A DNA stretch of 12,172 nucleotides from Candidatus Micrarchaeia archaeon (GCA_049966395.1 JBMFUT010000022.1:1-12172); one strand, 5' to 3'. Shown: positions 955-12,172, counted from the first letter of the stretch. Notes: generated by a model from the letters alone, not told the origin. Program-made: numbers and translations.

Positions 955-992
955 TATATAAGCTTATTCTGTAGATAGATTATCGAGGGTGA
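955..992 (+). promoter_or_regulatory. TATA box (TATATAAG ~955-962) and Shine-Dalgarno GGTGA (988-992) of the 997 gene
   Basis: gatatataagc...gagGGTGA-atta-ATG; archaeal TATA and SD geometry. Confidence 0.6.
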
Positions 993-996
993 ATTA

Positions 997-1227
997 ATGG
1001 CTGAAAGAATAGGAAAGGAGAAAATAGAAAGAGAAGATGGATATCTCTACTATGTAGGAAAGGACGGTTATGCATGGCGCACTCCTATGAAGACAAACCC
1101 TAGGGGCAGAAAGGCAAAGGTAGGAAGCGAAAAGGTTAGCAGAGAGGAAGGCTACCTGTACTTCGTAGACAAGAGCGGCTACATAGCAAGGGCAAAGATG
1201 AACAGGAGAGGAAGGAGGGGAAGATAA
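997..1227 (+). CDS. Small basic protein (76 aa) made of two ~37-aa internal repeats; putative nucleic-acid-binding or nucleoid protein
   Basis: Repeats ERIGKEKIEREDGYLYYVGKDGYAWRTPM and AKVGSEKVSREEGYLYFVDKSGYIARAKM; RRGRRGR tail; strong SD and own promoter. Function is inferred. Confidence 0.8.
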   Translation: MAERIGKEKIEREDGYLYYVGKDGYAWRTPMKTNPRGRKAKVGSEKVSREEGYLYFVDKSGYIARAKMNRRGRRGR

Positions 1228-1232
1228 TTCTC

Positions 1233-1619
1233 CTAGTTTGATTGGTTAGTCTTTTTCTTGAAGATTAGCCAATCTTTTCCTTTTATTCTCAAGAGAACGT
1301 AGACCCCTTTTATTTTTTTGCCGTTTATCTCTATTTCTATCCTTTTTTCGTTCCATCGCAAAGGCGTGTAATAGCCGTAATCCCAAAGTATTACTTCGCC
1401 AGCACCATACATTCCCTCAGGTATAACGCCCTCGAAATGGGCGTATTCCAATTGGTGGTCCTCTGTTTCTATGGCAAGGTGCTTTGACTCGTCGACTGGA
1501 ATTCCTTTTGGCATCGCCCAGCTTTTGAGCACTCCTCCTTTCTCCAATCTTAGGTCATAATGCAGGTGCGATGCGTGATGCTCCTGCACCGAATAAATCA
1601 GCTTTCTGGATTTCTCCAT
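1233..1619 (-). CDS. Stand-alone LigD-type 3'-phosphoesterase (PE) domain protein
   Basis: Diagnostic motifs [34 protein letters not shown] and [21 protein letters not shown]. Start at ATG 1619 preferred because of TATA spacing; 1634 is the alternative. Confidence 0.92.
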
Positions 1620-1634
1620 GATCCCGCTTCGCAT

Positions 1635-3984: not shown

Positions 3985-4059
3985 CGGGCATGGCGGGATT
4001 TGAACCCGCAACCTTCGGCTCCGCAAGCCGGCGCGCTATCCAAGTTACGCCACATGCCC
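3985..4059 (-). tRNA. tRNA-Arg(GCG), intronless, CCA not encoded
   Basis: Reverse complement GGGCATG TG GCGT AACTTGGATA GCGC G CCGGC TT-GCG-GA GCCGA AGGTT GCGGG TTCAAAT CCCGC CATGCCC G. Perfect acceptor and T stems; anticodon at 4022-4024. Confidence 0.95.
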
Positions 4060-4142
4060 AGCTGATATCTTTTTATATATTTTGAATTAATAAACTTATA
4101 CTTAACCTAACCGGTTTATTAGATTATGCTTATGGTGATTTT

Positions 4143-4310
4143 ATAGCATCTTTGCCAGGAAAAACATGCATATCGTGCGGCAGGCTTACCAAAGACTATG
4201 TGGAATTCAAGTGCCCTAACTGCGGCAAGGCAAACATAGTCAGGTGCTCCCACTGCAGGGAGACATATGTTAGGTACAAGTGCCCAGAGTGCGGATTCGA
4301 GGGACCTTAA
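4143..4310 (+). CDS. Zn-ribbon RNA-binding protein (DUF1610 / HVO_2753-like), ~55 aa; missing from the ORF track
   Basis: (M)ASLPGKTCISCGRLTKDYVEFKCPNCGKANIVRCSHCRETYVRYKCPECGFEGP*: four CxxC motifs and the family's CGFEGP end. It sits directly upstream of aEF-1beta (conserved archaeal arrangement) with a TAATG overlap. Start is ATA 4143 or TTG 4152. Confidence 0.92.
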   Translation: MASLPGKTCISCGRLTKDYVEFKCPNCGKANIVRCSHCRETYVRYKCPECGFEGP

Positions 4311-4552
4311 TGTCAGATGTTGGAGTTCTTTTCAAAGTATACCCTGAAAACGGAAAGGAAGAAGAAATCAGCAAGCGTATAGCGGAGCTCAAGCCTTCCG
4401 GAATACAACTTGAAGACGTGGCATTCGGGATAAAAGTGATAAAGGTTCTTTTCATACACGACGACAAGGAAGGAAGCAGCATTTTCGAGGAAAAGCTGAA
4501 GCAGATACCGGGGGTTAGGGAAGTGGAAGTCGAAGAAGAGAGCTTAATATGA
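4310..4552 (+). CDS. ef1b: Translation elongation factor aEF-1beta, 80 aa
   Basis: MSDVGVLFKVYPE...EDVAFGIKVIKV...EEKLKQIPGVREVEV. True start is ATG 4310, overlapping the upstream TAA. Confidence 0.92.
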   Translation: MSDVGVLFKVYPENGKEEEISKRIAELKPSGIQLEDVAFGIKVIKVLFIHDDKEGSSIFEEKLKQIPGVREVEVEEESLI

Positions 4553-5029
4553 ATGCGCCATCCTGCGCACTTTCTTTAGGCGTTTTGTTATAGATTTCCA
4601 GTGAGTGCCCTTCCAGTATATTTTGCCGCATTTTTTGCACATGTAGAAGTACCTGTTTTTATCATATGCAAGCTGAGGAACCTTGCCAGCCACTTCGCTC
4701 TTTTTTACCCTTTCGAGCTTTCCGCCGCACTTGGTGCATATTTTAGAGTTTGAAACTCCTATGCGCAGCTTCAGTGAGCGCGCCACGAATGCAAGTTGAT
4801 CGTCTATGCTGGCTTCGGGCACGTAGAGCACTTTGAATTTCCTGCGCCTGGCGCGAAGCGAAAGCTCCCTATCGGAAGTCAGCAACATTGCGTTTTTTCT
4901 TTTTACAGAAGCTATGAGCCTGTTGTCGTCAGTTATCGCGGCGGCTTCGACCTCTATGCCTGCGAGCCTTAACCATCTTGCAAGCTTTGCAAGCATGACG
5001 TCTGCAACCAGCCTTTGATGTTTTCCCAT
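4544..5029 (-). CDS. Mut7-C RNase domain protein (PIN fold with Zn ribbon), 161 aa
   Basis: VADVMLAKLARWLRLAG, LLTSDREL, CTKCGG and CKKCGKIYWKGTHW. Confidence 0.9.
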   Translation of the reverse strand: MGKHQRLVADVMLAKLARWLRLAGIEVEAAAITDDNRLIASVKRKNAMLLTSDRELSLRARRRKFKVLYVPEASIDDQLAFVARSLKLRIGVSNSKICTKCGGKLERVKKSEVAGKVPQLAYDKNRYFYMCKKCGKIYWKGTHWKSITKRLKKVRRMAHSY

Positions 5030-5154
5030 TTTACCATCGACATTGACCTATATCCCGCGAATTGACGCTCTGGCTTATCGCCCGGTCTGATTTGCTATTC
5101 AACAAATGGTATACAAGCTTTATATTTTTGATTAGGCAAAATAGAAAGGAGGAA

Positions 5155-7452
5155 ATGATAAACGAGATTCAGCTAATAAACTGGAAAGCGCACAAGGACA
5201 CGAAGTTGAGATTTGTAAAAGGCACAAATGTGCTTATGGGAGTCATGGGCGCAGGCAAAAGTTCTGTCCTCGACGCCATATCGTATGCGCTTTTCGGTAC
5301 TTATCCCGCGTTGCAGCACAAGCGCAGCAGCGTTGCAGGCATAATAAAAAGCAGGCCGGCACAAGAGCAGGAAGCAGTGGTCAGGCTCTCTTTCAGCGTG
5401 GGAAAAGATGTCTACGATATAGAAAGAAGAATAGCGTTGAATGGCACAACAAAGGCTGTGCTTAACAAGAATGGGGAATATCTGCAATCGCAGCCCCAGC
5501 GCGTCACTGAGACAGTAGAAAAGGTGCTTAAGGTTGAATACGACCTGTTTTCAAGGGCGGTATACTCCGAGCAAAACAGGCTCGACTACTTCTTAGAACT
5601 CAGGGCCGCTGACAGGAAAAGCCAGATAGACGAGCTGCTAGGGCTAGACAAATTCAGCATCGCGATAGAAAACGCGACAACGCTGGCTAACAGGATAAGC
5701 GAGATGGTCAGCGACCAGGAGGCCGACATGGCAAGGCTTGATGTTGATAAAATAAAAGCAGAAAGGGATTCGCTCAACAAGGAAAAAGAAGAGATTGCGG
5801 CTGAGGCGAAAAGGATTGAATCTGAACTTGCAAAAAAGACAGCCAACTTGGCAAAACTTGAAGAGGAGCTCAAAAGGGTCAAAGAACTTTACAACAGGAA
5901 GAACGCGCTGGCCAAGGAAATTGCCGAATCCAAAAGCAAGCTGGAAGTCCTCAAGAGCGAAATAAGCAAAATAGAGAGTAAGGGGCTCGGCGATTACGCC
6001 TCGATAGAATCGAATCTGAAGAAAGCCAAGGATGAACTGGATAGGCTGAAGGCCGAAGATGCGCGCATAAGGGAAATCGAAGGCGAGGCCAAAAGGAATT
6101 CGGCAAGGGCAGCGGCAGAGCTCAAGCAAATAGAAGAGAAGATTGCAGAGCGCAACAAGCTGGAAGCCGAGATCGGAGGCAAAAACCTGAAGGACGCCGA
6201 AAGAAGCCTTGAGGGCAATATAGAGGCGGCAAAAAAACTGGAAAACGAGATTGCAAGCCTCAGGGCAAAGAAGAAGGAAGTGGACAACTGGATCGCTGAA
6301 CTGGAAAAGCACATAACGCAGTGTCCAGTGTGCGAAAGGGAACTTTCAGAGGAGATGAAGAACAGGCTCCTGGAGGGCAAGAGGGAACAGTCCAAAAGCC
6401 TTGAAGATTCCGCCGCTGAAGCTGCAAAATCGCTCGCGAAATTGAACAAAAAGATAGAAGAAGATAGGGACGCGCTTTACAAGCTCAAGGGGGATTTGTC
6501 AAAAATGGAGTCGTTTGCCGGCATAGACGATAGGCTTTCCATTGTCAAAGGGAGCCTGGAAAAGTACGCTGCTGAAGAAGTCAAGGCAAAAGAGAGCTAT
6601 GAAAACAACAGGAAGATGATAGATGCGGCAAACGAAAGGTTCGCGCAGCTCAGTTCGGCTCTTGAAACTATGAAGAGGCTTTCCTCTTACATTGAAGAAG
6701 AGAAGAGAACAAACAAAATACTAAAAGAAAAGGAGATGGAATTCAATAGTTTAGACGTGGACGAATCGCGATTAGACAGCGTAACAAGGGCGTATGGTGA
6801 CACCAAGGCGGAAATAAGCGGGATGAAGGTAGACTACGATGCCAAAAAAAAGGCTATAAACGAAAAAGAGAAGCAGGTAATAGACAAGGATGAGCAGATA
6901 GAAAAAATAGAAAAGGCTTACGCGGAAATAAAAGAGAGAAAGAAGGTAGCGGAAGGCGTAAAAAAATTCAAGAACGCGCTTTCCGAAACGCAGGGAGTCC
7001 TCAGGAGCAAGCTGATAAACTCGATAAACAGCGTCATGCAAGAGATATGGCCTGAAATTTATCCGTATGGGGATTACAGCAGCATAATGCTAGAAGGAAC
7101 AAGCTCAGACTACGTGCTCAAGCTCAAGACAAACACGGGATCGTGGGAAGAGGTTAACGCAATTGCAAGCGGAGGCGAGAGAAGCATAGCGTGCCTAGCT
7201 ATGCGGGTGGCGTTCGCAATGGTGCTCGTGCCAAACTTGAGATGGATAATACTCGACGAGCCCACGCACAACATAGACAGACAGGGGCTTTCAAGGTTTG
7301 CGCAGGTTTTCAATGAAACCTTGCCGAAGATAATAGACCAGGTTTTTATAATAACGCACGACGAATTCTTAAGGCAGGCGGCAAACGCTAAAGTCTATAT
7401 ACTAAGCAGGGACAAAGACAAGGACGGCGCCACTGTGGTAGAAGAGGCGTGA
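5155..7452 (+). CDS. rad50: Rad50/SbcC-type SMC-family ATPase, 765 aa
   Basis: Walker A GVMGAGKSS, Q-loop YSEQ, long coiled coils with central zinc hook CPVC, signature ASGGE, Walker B/D-loop ILDEPTHNID, H-loop IITHD. Start ATG 5155 follows AAGGAGG. Confidence 0.9.
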   Translation: MINEIQLINWKAHKDTKLRFVKGTNVLMGVMGAGKSSVLDAISYALFGTYPALQHKRSSVAGIIKSRPAQEQEAVVRLSFSVGKDVYDIERRIALNGTTKAVLNKNGEYLQSQPQRVTETVEKVLKVEYDLFSRAVYSEQNRLDYFLELRAADRKSQIDELLGLDKFSIAIENATTLANRISEMVSDQEADMARLDVDKIKAERDSLNKEKEEIAAEAKRIESELAKKTANLAKLEEELKRVKELYNRKNALAKEIAESKSKLEVLKSEISKIESKGLGDYASIESNLKKAKDELDRLKAEDARIREIEGEAKRNSARAAAELKQIEEKIAERNKLEAEIGGKNLKDAERSLEGNIEAAKKLENEIASLRAKKKEVDNWIAELEKHITQCPVCERELSEEMKNRLLEGKREQSKSLEDSAAEAAKSLAKLNKKIEEDRDALYKLKGDLSKMESFAGIDDRLSIVKGSLEKYAAEEVKAKESYENNRKMIDAANERFAQLSSALETMKRLSSYIEEEKRTNKILKEKEMEFNSLDVDESRLDSVTRAYGDTKAEISGMKVDYDAKKKAINEKEKQVIDKDEQIEKIEKAYAEIKERKKVAEGVKKFKNALSETQGVLRSKLINSINSVMQEIWPEIYPYGDYSSIMLEGTSSDYVLKLKTNTGSWEEVNAIASGGERSIACLAMRVAFAMVLVPNLRWIILDEPTHNIDRQGLSRFAQVFNETLPKIIDQVFIITHDEFLRQAANAKVYILSRDKDKDGATVVEEA

Positions 7453-7453
7453 A

Positions 7454-8104
7454 TCAGCCCTTGTACGCCTCATTCAGATATTCGAGGAAGTTTTCCTCCG
7501 GCAATGCGCCCTCGAAAGAAACAGTGTCGTTTATCACTATTTTCGGCACTGCCATCACGTTGTAGCTGTTTGCGAGCTCCGGAAACTCCATCGATTCTAT
7601 CATGCTGCCCTTTATCTTATCGTTCTCCATTGCAAACTGGTGCGCCATTCTTACCGCCCTTGGGCAATACGGGCATGTTGGCGTGACGAAAACCTTTATG
7701 TCCATTGGCTTGTCTATCTTCTTCAGCGCCGCTTTTGTAGCTTCAGAAAGCCTTGTCTTGTTGTTCGAAGCGTCTACTATATCTTCTAGCAACGCCGCGA
7801 ATTCATGCCCGGCCGGAATGCCGAAATAGATGGCGCTGTATATTTTAGAGCCTCCTATTACCAAAGCGGGCACCTTGTCAACACCGAGGAATTTCGCCTC
7901 CTTCTGATGTTCCGAGATGTTGTAAACAGTGAGTTTTATCTTGCTGCTTAGAGCCGAAACCTCGCCAAGAAGTTCCTCTGTGTCTTTGCAGTACTGACAC
8001 TTTTCCTTTGAATCGACGAAAAGCATGAGCTTCACTTCGCCGCCAAGGTTTTTCTCAAACAGCTCCTTTACATATTTCTTGTCTTGCTCTTTTAGGAATT
8101 CTAT
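7454..8104 (-). CDS. Protein disulfide oxidoreductase (two thioredoxin folds, PDO / AhpF-NTD-like), 216 aa, probable ATA start
   Basis: Active sites CQYC and CPYC, plus DKVPA, GIPAGHEF, VMAVPKIVIN and FEGALPE. The frame extends 23 codons upstream of GTG 8035 as (M)EFLKEQDKKYVKELFEKNLGGEVKL, which resembles the usual N-terminal helix of the family. Confidence 0.9.
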   Translation of the reverse strand: MEFLKEQDKKYVKELFEKNLGGEVKLMLFVDSKEKCQYCKDTEELLGEVSALSSKIKLTVYNISEHQKEAKFLGVDKVPALVIGGSKIYSAIYFGIPAGHEFAALLEDIVDASNNKTRLSEATKAALKKIDKPMDIKVFVTPTCPYCPRAVRMAHQFAMENDKIKGSMIESMEFPELANSYNVMAVPKIVINDTVSFEGALPEENFLEYLNEAYKG

Positions 8105-8115
8105 GCAATCACCAT

Positions 8116-8130
8116 TATAACTTAGTTATA
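8116..8130. promoter_or_regulatory. Perfect inverted repeat TATAAC-N3-GTTATA between the TATA box and SD of the PDO gene; candidate operator
   Basis: tataac-tta-gttata; TATA-like TTTAAAAT at 8154-8147 on the minus strand. Confidence 0.4.
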
Positions 8131-8193
8131 TTTTAGCGGAAAAGGTATTTTAAACTATCGCTGATCAAAACGCGAATTGCCAATTAGGGACAA

Positions 8194-9222
8194 TCAGAGA
8201 TAGCCTATGTCCATTCCATTTGAAGGATGCTCGTCCTTGCCTACCACTGAAGATCCGGAAACGCCGGTGAATATAGCTACAACTTCCACCTTGTCCTCGT
8301 AATTAGGATCAATTGTCGCGCCCCAGGTAACGTAAGAGTTGGGCGATATCGATTCAGTGAGCTTTTCGCCTATCTGGTTTGCTTCACCAAGCGTCAGGTC
8401 TGGCCCTCCTCTTATGTACAGAAGCACGCCCTTTGCTCCCCTGTAATCGACGTCGAGAAGCTTGTTCTTGAGGGTTTCTTCAACCACCGCCTCCACCCTG
8501 TTGTGACCTGAGGCCGAGCCCACGCTTATCATGGAAAGCCCTCCAGCATTCATTACGGTGCGAACGTCTGCAAAATCGAGGTTTATTAAGCTTGGTTGGG
8601 TTATGGCTTCTGTTATGCCGCGCACCGCCTTGGCTGTTATCTCGTCGGCAAGCATGAATGCCTGCTCTATCTGAAGGTTTGGGTAAAGCGTAACGAGCCT
8701 CTGGTTGTCTATGACTATAAGGGTGTCGACATTTTTTTTCAGCTCCTCTACTCCCTTCTTTGCGACCTCGAGCCTTACCCTTTCCAGGGAAAAAGGAACT
8801 GTGACTATTCCTATTACTATGGCGCCGTTTCTTTTGGAGATGTCTGCTATCACAGGAGCTGCCCCGGTGCCAGTGCCTCCTCCCATTCCGGCAGTCAGGA
8901 AAAGCAGGTTTATGTCTTTGAGCAGAAGGTCTGCATCATTCCTTGAAAGCTCCGCGGCCTTTGCGCCTATCTCAGGAAAACCGCCTGCGCCGAGTCCGTG
9001 GGTTATAGATTGGCCCAAAACCAGCTTTTTTATTCTTGGGCTTATCATGTTGAGCTGCTTTGCGTCGGTGTTGAAGGCGAAAAGGTCAGCGCCTTTTATG
9101 TCTAGCGTGCTTATCCTGTGCACGGTGTTAGTGCCGGCGCCGCCCACTCCCGCCACCGCTATTTTAGGTTTAAAAAGCTCCAAATCCTCGCTCTGCATAC
9201 CCATGCTTGTGATTATTGGCAT
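8194..9222 (-). CDS. ftsZ: Cell division protein FtsZ (FtsZ2-like), 342 aa
   Basis: GVGGAGTN, NTDAKQL, GLGAGGFPEIG, tubulin signature GMGGGTGTG and T7 loop NLDFADV. FSLERVR and LLDVDYRGA resemble archaeal FtsZ2. Start ATG 9222 follows AGGTGC-TATA. Confidence 0.95.
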   Translation of the reverse strand: MPIITSMGMQSEDLELFKPKIAVAGVGGAGTNTVHRISTLDIKGADLFAFNTDAKQLNMISPRIKKLVLGQSITHGLGAGGFPEIGAKAAELSRNDADLLLKDINLLFLTAGMGGGTGTGAAPVIADISKRNGAIVIGIVTVPFSLERVRLEVAKKGVEELKKNVDTLIVIDNQRLVTLYPNLQIEQAFMLADEITAKAVRGITEAITQPSLINLDFADVRTVMNAGGLSMISVGSASGHNRVEAVVEETLKNKLLDVDYRGAKGVLLYIRGGPDLTLGEANQIGEKLTESISPNSYVTWGATIDPNYEDKVEVVAIFTGVSGSSVVGKDEHPSNGMDIGYL

Positions 9223-9337
9223 TATAGCACCTATATGATATGCATGAATAAAAAGAAATATTTTGCGTATATTGGGCGCAACTAATGCAAAACGCTCTTG
9301 GGTAAATTTATTTAATTTTTTCTGCGGAAGAGCAATA

Positions 9338-11068
9338 ATGTACAACAAGCAGATTTCTGAAATGTTCAACGAGATCGCCGACATGCTTATGCTTGAGCCC
9401 GGAGACCACAGCTTTGAAGTGAGGGCTTACCAGAAGGCAGCTATGACTGTTTCTACTCTGCAAGAGGATGTTGGGGACATAATTCAAAAAAAGGGCATTG
9501 ACGGCCTTCTTGCGCTTCCTGGCATAGGCAAGACCATTGCAGAAAGAATACAGGAATTCGTGGCAACAGGGCGCATGAAAAAATACGACGAGCTGAAGGG
9601 CAAGTATCCTATAGATTTTGCAAGCCTTACCAGAATACAGGGGCTTGGCGCGAAGAAGATACTCAGGCTTTACAAGGATCTTGGAGTCAATAACATAGAC
9701 AGCTTGAAAAAAGCGGTAGAGTCGCACAGCATCAGCAAATTGGAGGGTTTCGGAGAGAAAAGCGAAGAAGAGATCAAGAAGGGGTTAGAGATGCTCCAAA
9801 GCATAGGAGGCAGGATGCTGCTAGGGACAGCTCTGCCAGAGGCTGAAAGGATAGTAGACAAGATAATCAAAAGCGGCCTGGCGGAGAAGGCTGTTATTGC
9901 TGGCTCAACTAGGAGGATGAAGGAAACTGTCGGGGATTTGGACATACTGGTAATATCAAAAAACAACGATAAGGTGATGGATTTCGTATCTTCAATGCCC
10001 GAAACCAAGAGCGTTGTGGTAAAGGGGCCAACTAAGACTACCGTAGAGCTAAAGATAGGGCTTACTTGCGATTTCAGAGTGATAGAGGCGGAAAGCTTCG
10101 GCGCGGCGCTGCAGTACTTTACCGGAAGCAAGGACCACAACATACAAGTAAGGCAAATAGCGGTGAAAATGGGATACAAGCTGAGCGAGTACGGACTTTT
10201 TGACGGCAAGGACAGGCGCATCGCAGGCAGCGACGAGGAATCGGTTTATGGCAAGCTCGGCATGGACTACATAGAGCCGGAGATGAGAGAAGGAAGAGGT
10301 GAGATAGAGCTTGCGCAAAAGCACAAACTGCCGAAGCTTGTGAGGCTGGAGGATATAAAGGGAGACCTGCATACCCACACAAACTACAGCGGCGACAGTT
10401 CAAACGACATTGACGATCTAATCCGCGAAGCTATCAGGCTTGGCAGAAAATATATAGGTTTGACAGACCACACCAAGAGCGAGTATGTGGCAAGGGGAAT
10501 GAATGACAAGCAGTTCGAAAGCTATTTCAAAGTAGTAGACAAAGCAGCTGAAAGATACGAAGGCAAAATAGTAATACTGAAAAGCGCCGAAATAGACATA
10601 CTCAAGGATGGCTCTCTCGATCTTTCAAGGAAGACCCTTGATGAAATGGACTACAGGCTGTGCGCGGTGCACACCAACAGGAACATGAGCAGGGATGAAA
10701 TGACGAAAAGGATAACCACCGCACTAGACAGCGGTTATGTGGATATACTTGCTCACCCAACAGGCAGGCTCATAAACGAGAGGGGACCAATAGACATTGA
10801 TATAGACAAAGTTTTCGAGGCGGCAAAAAGGAACGGCGTGATCATGGAGATAAATTCTTTCCCCAGCAGGCTCGACCTCAACGACGAAAATATAATGAAA
10901 GCAAGGGAATACGGCCTCAGGTTTTCGATAGGCACGGACGCCCACAGGCTCTCGCATCTTGAGTTCATGAAATTTGGAGTAGGCATGGCGCGAAGGGGAT
11001 GGCTCGAGAGCAAGGACGTGATAAATACTTCCAGCCCTGGAGAAATAAGAAAAATATTGAAGAGATAG
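9338..11068 (+). CDS. polX: DNA polymerase X with C-terminal PHP domain, 576 aa
   Basis: HhH motifs LPGIGKTI, IQGLGAKK and LEGFGEKS; GSTRRMKETVGDLDIL (catalytic DxD), CDFRV, YFTGSKDHN; PHP motifs DLHTHT, TDH, AHPTGR and GTDAH. Start ATG 9338 lies ~24 nt after TTTATTTA. Confidence 0.95.
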   Translation: MYNKQISEMFNEIADMLMLEPGDHSFEVRAYQKAAMTVSTLQEDVGDIIQKKGIDGLLALPGIGKTIAERIQEFVATGRMKKYDELKGKYPIDFASLTRIQGLGAKKILRLYKDLGVNNIDSLKKAVESHSISKLEGFGEKSEEEIKKGLEMLQSIGGRMLLGTALPEAERIVDKIIKSGLAEKAVIAGSTRRMKETVGDLDILVISKNNDKVMDFVSSMPETKSVVVKGPTKTTVELKIGLTCDFRVIEAESFGAALQYFTGSKDHNIQVRQIAVKMGYKLSEYGLFDGKDRRIAGSDEESVYGKLGMDYIEPEMREGRGEIELAQKHKLPKLVRLEDIKGDLHTHTNYSGDSSNDIDDLIREAIRLGRKYIGLTDHTKSEYVARGMNDKQFESYFKVVDKAAERYEGKIVILKSAEIDILKDGSLDLSRKTLDEMDYRLCAVHTNRNMSRDEMTKRITTALDSGYVDILAHPTGRLINERGPIDIDIDKVFEAAKRNGVIMEINSFPSRLDLNDENIMKAREYGLRFSIGTDAHRLSHLEFMKFGVGMARRGWLESKDVINTSSPGEIRKILKR

Positions 11069-11392
11069 CTAAAGAGACCCTGCCATTGCGCGCAGCGATT
11101 TTTCAGCGCAGAGCCTGTCTATTGAATCTGCTATCTTTTCAGGGCTTGCGCCGTTTGCTATTTCATCCACTATAGGGTCGCTCAAGCCTGCCTTTGCTAT
11201 GTAAGTGCGCATCTCTGATACCTTCTTGGAGCAGTTGCCTTTCAGGTACTTGTTGACTGCAGCCTGAGCTATGCCAAGTTTCCTTGCTATCTCTTGCTGT
11301 GTGAAGCCATGCTCGTTCTTGAGCTTTAAGGCTATGGAAGCCCTTATTGCCGGCAGTATTACGCTTGTTATTTCTCTGCAGTGAGGATCCAT
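11069..11392 (-). CDS. Archaeal XRE-type HTH transcriptional regulator (COG2522-like), 107 aa
   Basis: PHCREITSVILPAIRASIA followed by HTH GFTQQEIARKLGIAQAAVNKYLKG. Confidence 0.85.
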   Translation of the reverse strand: MDPHCREITSVILPAIRASIALKLKNEHGFTQQEIARKLGIAQAAVNKYLKGNCSKKVSEMRTYIAKAGLSDPIVDEIANGASPEKIADSIDRLCAEKSLRAMAGSL

Positions 11393-11401
11393 GCCAACAC
11401 G

Positions 11402-11998
11402 CTAGCGGTGGTCTTGCTTGCCGTAGCCCTCGTCTTCTATTCCAAGCGCGTATTTTATCTTTTTAATTATGCCTTTCTGCGGAGGCGGCGTGTCCTCTTC
11501 CTCTTCCTCTAAATCATTTGCTTCCGCCTGAGGTTGAACCTTGGATGCCTTTGGCTGAGATTGAACCGGTGCTGCATTCCTTGGAGCTACAGACGCCTTC
11601 TGGAGGTCCTTCTTGCCTGGTTTAAATATACCTGGCATCGCCTTTCTAGACTGCTGAAGCTGCACGACTGACTTGGCTATGCTGCGGATGTCAGCATTCC
11701 TGCCAAGTATTATCACGTTTGCGCCATTGTCCCTTGCAGACTCTATGTCTTCGCCACTGCTGCACACCGCAGCGCGGACTTCCTGCCTCTTGTTTAGCAA
11801 AATACCCATGCCAACGGGATCTGAAACTGCTAGCAGCACGCTGTCAAATGCTCCGTTGCCAACTATACCATACAGCGCGTCTAGGTATTCGTCTCTGCCA
11901 GTAACCTCTTTTTCGACTATGTTTATGTCGTATTTTTCGAGCTCGCTAGCCAGCTCCTCGCCACCATTTTGGGAATCGCTGAGTATGCACACTTTCAG
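11402..11998 (-). CDS. Degenerate RpiB/LacAB-fold protein with low-complexity C-terminal tail, 198 aa, probable CTG start
   Basis: (M)KVCILSD, GMGILLNKRQEVRAAVC and ARDNGANVIILG align with RpiB motifs (MKIAIGSD, GMSIAANKxxGIRAALC, ARxHNDANVLCLG), but the catalytic motifs are missing. Confidence 0.7.
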   Translation of the reverse strand: MKVCILSDSQNGGEELASELEKYDINIVEKEVTGRDEYLDALYGIVGNGAFDSVLLAVSDPVGMGILLNKRQEVRAAVCSSGEDIESARDNGANVIILGRNADIRSIAKSVVQLQQSRKAMPGIFKPGKKDLQKASVAPRNAAPVQSQPKASKVQPQAEANDLEEEEEDTPPPQKGIIKKIKYALGIEDEGYGKQDHR

Positions 11999-12172
11999 GC
12001 AATCACCTTAGTTATTGATAACATAAGCGCTGTACTATTATAAACTTATCGCGCCAATCTTTCTGCCGACAAAATGGAATATATACGCATGCGGCGCTCT
12101 TTCAGTGAACTGCAGCGCCTTCCTCAAATGCCAAAGTTGGAAGAGCTATTTTGGCGCCAATAGCTATTCCTA

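Follow-up and report, generated by a model that had tools for sequence, protein, structure and literature searches.

Probable Shine-Dalgarno-led starts at AUA, CUG and other near-cognate codons in a Candidatus Micrarchaeia archaeon and its relatives

Introduction

The initiation of translation at near-cognate codons behind a Shine-Dalgarno (SD) motif is already known as a mechanism in bacteria, infC and ccpN being examples, and pcnB of Escherichia coli is reportedly begun at AUU. Here we analyzed a possible archaeal counterpart in a 12,172-nucleotide contig of a Candidatus Micrarchaeia archaeon (GCA_049966395.1, JBMFUT010000022.1:1-12172; this whole stretch is called the window), in which the genes for a protein disulfide oxidoreductase (PDO), a small Zn-ribbon protein and an RpiB-like protein appear to begin at ATA, ATA and CTG. 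In S. aureus, SD-led starts are reported at four sites, infC, ccpN, citZ (AUA) and cvfC1 (AUU), and the efficiency of bacterial near-cognate starts is put at about 10% (PMC13009471), while E. coli infC starts at AUU (PMC2831307). The codons studied here resemble the bacterial ones in being near-cognate, at the right spacing from a strong SD and kept among relatives, and cvfC1, a small gene that heads an operon and putatively encodes a zinc finger, recalls our Zn-ribbon gene. In contrast to the bacterial cases, the machinery here is the archaeal one (aIF1, aIF1A and aIF2) and the starts are deduced from sequences alone; the source genome also has at least 11 such genes among about 712, ACG and GCG starts included, where S. 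aureus has four sites.

Belinky, Rogozin and Koonin (2017) found that weak start codons accompany stronger SDs and, in an annotation-based count, recorded 3 switches to CUG/AUU among 61,358 AUG starts (PMC5622118), whereas near-cognate switches amount here to about 1 in 100 gene copies. Archaeal start selection is described as depending on aIF1 and aIF2, with local scanning and discrimination against non-canonical codons, and no natural AUA- or ACG-started archaeal gene is given in the available parts of these descriptions (PMC6237735, PMC6412873). More broadly, the archaeal papers discriminate against non-canonical starts, set them aside or consider only small open reading frames (ORFs) with CTG (PMC6237735, PMC6412873, PMC8211752, PMC7261190, PMC11456600). 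Our literature search, whose coverage excluded most subscription journals and supplementary start-site tables, returned no paper that links start codons with Micrarchaeota or DPANN.

Results

Near-cognate codons in the SD slot of three genes

The window is contig C22 of a source genome (G000) of 34 contigs and 693,655 bases, 89% complete, that of a tiny archaeon with a symbiotic life style. Up to 40 relatives served for comparison, and their main families, f1 and f3, belong to one order, which we take to be Micrarchaeales and hereafter call the order. One relative, G038, is unpublished; it supplies the GTA row of RNase HII, one ATG row of the Zn-ribbon gene and one TTG row, and no conclusion rests on them. 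The 3' end of the 16S rRNA of G000, on contig C25, reads GAUCACCUC and then A, and it lacks the C that normally ends this tail. The complementary SD is therefore (GA)GGUGAUC, and the working SD its start-proximal GGUGAU. The spacing from GGTGA to ATG was 4 nt in 26 of 38 G000 cases and 4-6 nt in 33. Among the 13 GGTGA motifs of the window, four lie at gene 5' ends, with ATG, ATA, ATA and CTG as slot codons, as listed below.

988..999, plus strand: control, GGTGA + 4 nt + ATG, of gene 997-1227
4095..4100, plus strand: TATA-like box, 48 nt upstream of the Zn-ribbon start
4134..4140, plus strand: SD of the Zn-ribbon gene, GGTGATT, -9.1 kcal/mol with the 16S tail of G000
4143..4310, plus strand: Zn-ribbon gene (PRK14890 / HVO_2753 family), 55 codons, very likely ATA start at 4143
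4310..4552, plus strand: aEF-1beta, ATG start, operon partner downstream of the Zn-ribbon gene
7454..8104, minus strand: PDO (TIGR02187), 216 codons, almost certain ATA start at 8104
8107..8113, minus strand: SD of PDO, GGTGATT, -9.7 kcal/mol
8147..8154, minus strand: TATA-like box, 50 nt upstream of the PDO start
11402..11998, minus strand: RpiB-like gene with acidic C-terminal tail, probable CTG start at 11998
12001..12007, minus strand: SD of the RpiB-like gene, GGTGATT, -10.8 kcal/mol
12008-12010, minus strand: in-frame TAA directly ahead of this SD
12037..12044, minus strand: TATA-like box, 46 nt upstream of the RpiB-like start

A previous sequence-only reading of this DNA had located GGTGA-TTTT-ATA at 4134/4143 on the plus strand and GGTGA-TTGC-ATA at 8113/8104 and GGTGA-TTGC-CTG at 12007/11998 on the minus strand, and all these coordinates are correct. 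Two of the ATG genes that it used as controls were also confirmed (GGTGA-ATTA-ATG at 997 and GGTGC-TATA-ATG at 9222), but the third, PAC2 with ACTGA, has a poor SD. Pairing with the 16S tail reached -9.1 to -10.8 kcal/mol at the three odd sites, compared to -8.5, -6.1 and, for PAC2, -3.2 kcal/mol at the ATG controls. TATA-like boxes were observed 46-50 nt upstream of all three odd starts, which is also the peak position for SD-led ATG genes, so the leader containing the SD should be transcribed. The odd codons occupy both the SD slot and the Met column of the orthologues; on these two grounds the three starts, claimed by that reading to be real and SD-guided, very probably are so.

The PDO translation contains CQYC and CPYC (two thioredoxin folds, CxxC) and scores 271 bits with the TIGR02187 profile, against a curated cut-off of 185. 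As previously claimed, no ATG, GTG or TTG lies between the upstream stop (codon -8) and the GTG of codon +23 (8035), which is followed by an ATG at 8026, and the codons ahead of this GTG are family-like, the TIGR02187 match starting 18 codons before it (ORF residue 13 versus 31). PDO is present in 18 of the 40 relatives. The proposed alignment of orthologue N-termini gave a canonical start in or close to the same column for 17 of them: the ATA column holds ATG in 11, GTG in 2 and TTG in 1, ATG falls within -1..+3 in 3, and ATA is found in the remaining one. In this last relative, G001, which is of a different genus, the ATA follows GGTGA + 4 nt and the first canonical codon comes only at +26. 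The NCBI call on the G000 contig already begins PDO at ATA (216 aa), while public calls in other close assemblies begin at a downstream codon (190 aa). Taken together, these data indicate that PDO almost certainly begins at ATA 8104.

The Zn-ribbon protein exceeds the cut-offs of NF011481 (67.7 versus 61) and PF07754 (55.4 versus 33.2) and stays under that of NF041909; the stop of its gene overlaps the aEF-1beta ATG by 1 nt. The gene was found in 40/40 relatives, and in the best 29 of these the start column shows ATG 15, ATA 12, ATC 1 and TTG 1, so that the SD slot is ATA/ATC in 13/29, with both families represented. One of the ATA relatives has an ATG two codons downstream, and five of the 29 have no ATG, GTG or TTG from the upstream stop through column +11. 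A start at ATA 4143 is very likely. The RpiB-like protein, which carries a long Pro/Gln/acidic tail, passes the Pfam cut-off (28.2 versus 24.7), yet it is far under every NCBIfam cut-off. Its in-frame TAA at codon -4 was found as claimed. The gene was matched in 25/40 relatives and 23 of 27 fetched loci were aligned, one being a closer RpiB paralogue; at column 0 we observed ATG in 13, TTG in 3, GTG in 3 and ATA in 3, with ATG at -1 in 1. The RpiB-like gene thus probably begins at CTG 11998.

Both genes could instead start at TTG 4152 and GTG 11992, leaving the slot codons unused. These canonical codons, acknowledged as nearby alternatives by the sequence-only reading, do lie three and two codons downstream, and public calls choose them; other close assemblies likewise give the RpiB-like protein 194 aa from a downstream codon. 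However, they stand 13 and 10 nt from GGTGA, outside the usual 4-6 nt. In many Zn-ribbon relatives the TTG 4152 column reads CTA, CTG, CTT or TTA, so that TTG 4152 is a synonymous leucine codon, five Zn-ribbon relatives have no such canonical alternative, and RpiB-like orthologues start at column 0 or -1. Downstream starting is improbable on these observations, and initiation in the slot is preferred. The warning that gene callers truncate such genes holds for the Zn-ribbon and RpiB-like genes, but not for the NCBI call of PDO on the G000 contig.

Genome-wide count in G000

The suggested tally of slot codons was run over the whole genome, using a codon-model gene set of 711 genes to which the missed Zn-ribbon gene was added (about 712). 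Genes were ranked, the SD not being used, by how much coding signal precedes the first canonical codon, and six genes with GGTG and ACG, GCG, ATA, ATA, ATA or ATT came within the top nine. Of the 28 non-canonical codons that stand in frame in a strong-SD slot close to a gene 5' end, 13 were ATA, ATT, ATC, CTG or ACG, compared to a background of 11.7% (binomial p 5e-6), while only 2/63 out-of-frame strong-SD slots were near-cognate. Eleven cases are supported by orthologues (about 1.5%), eight of them genes outside the window whose odd codons align with canonical starts in relatives; for six of the 11, orthologues were sought in five relatives only. The starts assigned in this way are as follows.

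Probable ATA starts: PDO, Zn-ribbon, V-ATPase C, DUF357
Probable ATT start: RNase HII
Probable CTG starts: RpiB-like gene, DNA ligase
Probable ACG starts: VKOR, phosphoesterase, an unnamed gene of contig C33
Probable GCG start: a conserved 154-codon gene, G000:C1:47791-48255 (L117), minus strand

Five of these (PDO, RNase HII, the C33 gene, the GCG gene and DUF357) have no usable canonical start, lacking any canonical codon for 18-89 codons. A twelfth candidate, an ORF of contig C2 with ATA, had no orthologue in 5/5 genomes searched and stays unverified. The rate of 11-12 in about 712 genes (1.5-1.7%) is a lower bound because screening was mainly at the exact spacing. The class with the strongest SDs is enriched for TTG and for near-cognate codons, and the latter make up 8 of its about 30 starts after removal of three doublet-SD artefacts and addition of the Zn-ribbon gene. 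The proposal that the lineage routinely initiates at AUA/CUG is thus upheld as a lineage habit, with the word routine restricted to genes whose SD is perfect. Its estimate of three genes in 14 does not stand as a lineage rate: it is a local excess (p 0.0015 at the genome rate), and since the genome holds about 50 such windows, one such cluster is not extraordinary. Overall, about 1-2 genes per 100 in G000 and its relatives very probably begin at ATA, ATT, ATC, CTG, ACG or, once, GCG.

Several candidates were rejected: PNP (TTG one codon upstream), several GGTGGTG doublets (TTG at -1) and an EF-2-like ORF (ATG close by). NCBI translation table 11 has ATT, ATC, ATA and CTG among its alternative starts and is not known to include ACG or GCG; in practice, ATA is already used for the G000 calls of PDO and RNase HII. 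DUF357 is also truncated in the public calls consulted. The GCG gene, called at 114 aa from a downstream codon, matches no Pfam family, is present in 41/41 genomes and has ACG in G033. Separately, a 2.8-kb ORF (G000:C14:16376-19177, plus strand, L121) without family match has no canonical codon for 77 codons and an ATA at codon 11 after a GAGGGT stretch.

Probable AUH starts of RNase HII across the order

RNase HII was matched in 40/40 relatives. In the best 29 of them, the column of the G000 ATT start holds ATA in 10, ATT in 8, ATC in 7, ATG in 2 and GTA in 1, with TTG one codon earlier in 1; AUA, AUU or AUC (AUH) is thus found in 25/29. Seventeen of the 29 copies have no canonical codon ahead of column +11, the catalytic DEAGRG occupying columns 7-11, and 23 of the 26 AUH copies, G000 counted, have GGTG 5-7 nt ahead of the start. 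In a tree of 79 rows (quick method, midpoint root), the order forms one clade (support 99) with AUH in 41/52 rows, the G000 copy grouping with named Candidatus Micrarchaeaceae / Micrarchaeota loci. ATG rows are nested among the AUH rows, and we infer that the change ran from AUH to ATG.

In 29/30 loci of the order, RNase HII stands directly 3' of a gene that we take to belong to the PRC-barrel family. The gap between the two is 8-75 nt in all frames, which rules out a fusion or a frameshift from the upstream gene. The NCBI call on the G000 contig gives an RNase HII of 230 aa from an ATA one codon past column 0, while the public calls in other close assemblies (189 aa) are without the catalytic N-terminus. 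As a side observation, RNase HI has GGTGA + 4 nt + ATA in two near-identical genomes (L223:4165, L228:4231), making weak starts possible for both RNase H types.

These columns also bear on the idea that sequencing or assembly errors made ATA, CTG or ACG from ATG. G000 is a metagenome assembly, and each of its odd codons differs by a single change from a canonical codon. Patchy coverage of the window by contigs from three runs on one sample does not settle the three sites, a 198-nt piece across the PDO start having 4 differences at unplaced positions. Nevertheless, ATA, ATT and ATC recur in the same columns in dozens of independent genomes, which refutes error for RNase HII and the Zn-ribbon gene, and PDO, RpiB-like, RNase HII and the GCG gene are called from downstream codons in other close assemblies, which suggests that no ATG stands in the slot there. 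Error is hardly credible as a general explanation. Restoration of canonical codons by RNA editing (C-to-U for ACG, CUG and GCG, A-to-I for AUA) is scarcely better placed. Each of ACG, CTG, GCG and ATA is one deamination away from AUG, UUG, GUG or an AUG-like codon, and GCG is otherwise a double mismatch, but transitions are the commonest mutations anyway and the ATT and ATC of 16/30 RNase HII copies, that of G000 included, are beyond repair by deamination. We therefore keep to initiation at the codons as written.

Rate in relatives and outgroups

The order was sampled at 301 loci (1.59 Mb, 625 gene copies, 68 families). Three families picked for their odd start in G000 were removed, leaving 551 copies, the consensus rule having already dropped RNase HII and the Zn-ribbon gene. 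Obligate SD + near-cognate starts were found in 6 of the 551 gene copies, as given below; three other flags were dropped, having no SD + near-cognate codon.

RNase HI, twice (near-identical genomes)
Helix-turn-helix gene
Membrane gene
uS3
uS19

Outgroups were sampled as regions around aIF1 (20 genomes each, about 0.36 Mb per outgroup). No obligate case was observed in other Micrarchaeia orders (0/292), in a Thermoplasmatota-centred set (0/154) or in a Woesearchaeota-centred set (0/317), seven flags having been checked and none kept. The difference between 6/551 and 0/763 has a Fisher p of 0.005, with the reservations that kin are not independent and that gene sets differ, those of the outgroups being mostly ribosomal proteins. 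Hand counts gave uL29 2/34, eS26 1/21 and uS3 1/20 in the order and uS3 0/20 and uL29 0/4 in other orders. A raised near-cognate start rate in the order is likely on these figures.

SD-led near-cognate initiation at 1-5% of genes could alternatively be a general and overlooked archaeal trait. Near-cognate codons made up about 30% of the putative alternative starts of Haloferax and were set aside (PMC7261190), and RNase HII has GGTG + ATA in 2 of 23 fetched loci of other orders of the class. Against this, the three outgroups have no obligate case, and in seven non-Micrarchaeota RNase HII loci ATG or GTG stands at column 0 or -1 in five, with ATG at +2 in one and one ambiguous. A general trait therefore appears rather unlikely, and we retain the reading of a habit of this order.

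Initiation machinery and genetic code

The sequence-only reading had suggested inspecting initiation factors and initiator tRNA for changes in fidelity residues; those inspected look ordinary and no change explaining the starts was found. aIF1 was detected in 40/41 genomes with a consensus like that of the outgroups, aIF1A and aIF2-gamma are present in 5/5 genomes (presence only), and the initiator tRNA has A1:U72 and three G-C anticodon-stem pairs. Loss of a fidelity factor or an odd initiator tRNA was thus rejected (aIF2-alpha/beta and aIF5B not searched). The aIF1 gene begins at ATG in 30/30 loci, so that, unlike bacterial infC, there is no fidelity factor with a weak start, and infC-type autoregulation was discarded. 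The Asp of the aIF1 QGD motif, presumably the equivalent of a fidelity residue in yeast eIF1, is Ser in G000; this position varies in all four groups and is not diagnostic.

Another possibility is that AUA means Met throughout, or that a four-codon upstream ORF (ATG GTG ATT ... TAG) over the ATA drives termination-reinitiation. In the window, PDO and the Zn-ribbon gene each have such a mini-ORF ahead of them, and TiaS (PF08489) was not found in 5/5 genomes (G000, G001, G033, G044 and G041) by a search that detected it in four control archaea. However, the TAG of the mini-ORF is a by-product of SD-N4-ATA-G and is gone where the second codon begins otherwise. Over 4255 positions, internal ATA behaves like ATT and ATC, aligning with Ile at 63% and with Met at 2.8%, which led us to reject a mitochondrial-type reassignment. 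Both variants are very unlikely, and direct SD-led initiation remains preferred. Incidentally, Ile is encoded predominantly by ATA, which, with TiaS undetected, implies another way of reading AUA; ARAGORN found no tRNA-Ile in G000.

Helix 44 of 16S rRNA

At the 3' end of the G000 16S rRNA (C25 minus strand, L368:257-479), the top of helix 44 carries U:A and A:U where the consensus has G-C pairs (Rfam alignment), at positions that are presumably E. coli 1404:1497 and 1405:1496. The 16S 3' end was matched in 135/151 genomes, of which 70 were read, with one locus of the order unresolved. Pairs 1404-1406/1495-1497 are non-consensus in 42/43 resolved genomes of the order, compared to 2/26 in other orders, and U1404:A1497 occurs in 34 of the 43. 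As judged from the DNA, the final C of the anti-SD is absent in 43/43 genomes of the order and kept in 25/26 others. Relatives also turn 1406.1495 into a Watson-Crick pair, and C1400 is U in 8/70. Inserts of about 0.3-0.9 kb, which are probably introns, interrupt the 16S match around query position 58 in G181, G044, G022, G197, G172 and G097.

C1404:G1497 is described as universally conserved and adjoining the P-site codon (PMC3900107), and a neighbouring modification tunes AUU initiation (PMC2831307). A remodelled P site, with compensated changes at 1404:1497, 1405:1496 and 1406.1495, might loosen start-codon checking and give more near-cognate starts. The distributions of the helix 44 changes, of the lost anti-SD C and of obligate near-cognate starts (order versus outgroups) point in this direction. 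On the other hand, G017 has a canonical helix 44 and yet ATA at RNase HII (with an in-frame GTG inside its SD), as do G044 and G064 from other orders, while an Iainarchaeum genome has A1405:U1496 and yet starts RNase HII with GTG. Co-occurrence in one clade is also close to a single event, and the mostly ribosomal outgroup gene sets are unlike the ingroup set. This cause is a tentative and rather improbable one; it is unproven because three genomes with canonical helices also use ATA.

Other features of the window

Gene 997-1227 (plus strand, 76 codons) contains an internal repeat and has homologues in five fetched loci; Pfam and NCBIfam scans gave no match. Three further genes and a tRNA were annotated.

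1233-1620, minus strand: stand-alone LigD 3'-phosphoesterase
3985-4059: tRNA-Arg(GCG)
5155-7452, plus strand: Rad50-like ATPase
9338-11068, plus strand: PolX-PHP

The three genes sit within 10 kb, and family scans detected no Mre11 in the window. Positions 1-83 resemble part of another tRNA; neither tool listed a tRNA there.

Discussion

Taken together, our observations strongly favor genuine SD-led near-cognate starts in G000 and its relatives, as judged from slots, columns and counts. Several results weigh against this reading. CTG is the start in none of the 23 aligned RpiB-like relatives. Six of the 11 G000 cases have a nearby canonical codon (Zn-ribbon TTG +3, RpiB-like GTG +2, V-ATPase C GTG +1, phosphoesterase GTG +6, VKOR TTG +8 and ligase ATG -10), the DNA ligase being the weakest, since the ATG 10 codons upstream fits its TATA box. 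In some RNase HII copies, an in-frame GTG inside the SD is a possible alternative start. Candidates were mostly chosen by SD strength, so the link with a strong SD is partly circular. Like-for-like ribosomal-protein regions of the order gave 1 obligate case in 138.

In the mechanism that we propose, SD pairing would park the 30S subunit so that the slot codon sits in the P site, where the ordinary initiator Met-tRNA would accept it with one mismatch (two for GCG); the protein would begin with Met, at lower efficiency. This is consistent with the archaeal aIF1/aIF2 model (PMC6237735, PMC6412873), the same factors being present here and the SD pre-positioning the complex. Two regimes may coexist. 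In the first, weak starts would be kept, order-wide for RNase HII and in about half of the genomes for the Zn-ribbon gene; such genes keep AUH, swap AUA, AUU and AUC and sometimes revert to AUG, a pattern that suggests selection for low output. In the second, to which PDO and the RpiB-like gene would belong, scattered switches would be tolerated in about 1-2% of genes behind a strong SD, mostly as single transitions from ATG, TTG or GTG.

A broader view, which we consider doubtful, is that in this order the SD has taken over from the codon in selecting the start: the short anti-SD tail would fix the slot, the helix 44 changes would relax the check by aIF1 and initiator tRNA, and the weak AUH would ration RNase HII. 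If this is true, AUH, CUG, ACG and even GCG would be able to start essential genes, and the order would offer a natural ribosomal loose-start variant, with an rRNA change tied to genome-wide start codon use.

The ATA start of PDO already stands in the public NCBI record. What appears new is the order-wide AUH start of RNase HII with its returns to AUG, the half-conserved AUA of the Zn-ribbon gene, the starts at ACG and GCG and the rRNA changes that accompany them. The searched literature hardly describes natural non-AUG starts for archaea. Gene callers limited to ATG, GTG and TTG would shorten about 1-2% of the proteins of the order, plus RNase HII in most genomes, where calls of 189 residues could pass for pseudogenes. 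An AUH start that spans the order and has gone back to AUG several times would provide a ready test of selection for limited expression, and the co-occurring helix 44 changes offer a concrete hypothesis, that rRNA near the P site may set start-codon fidelity.

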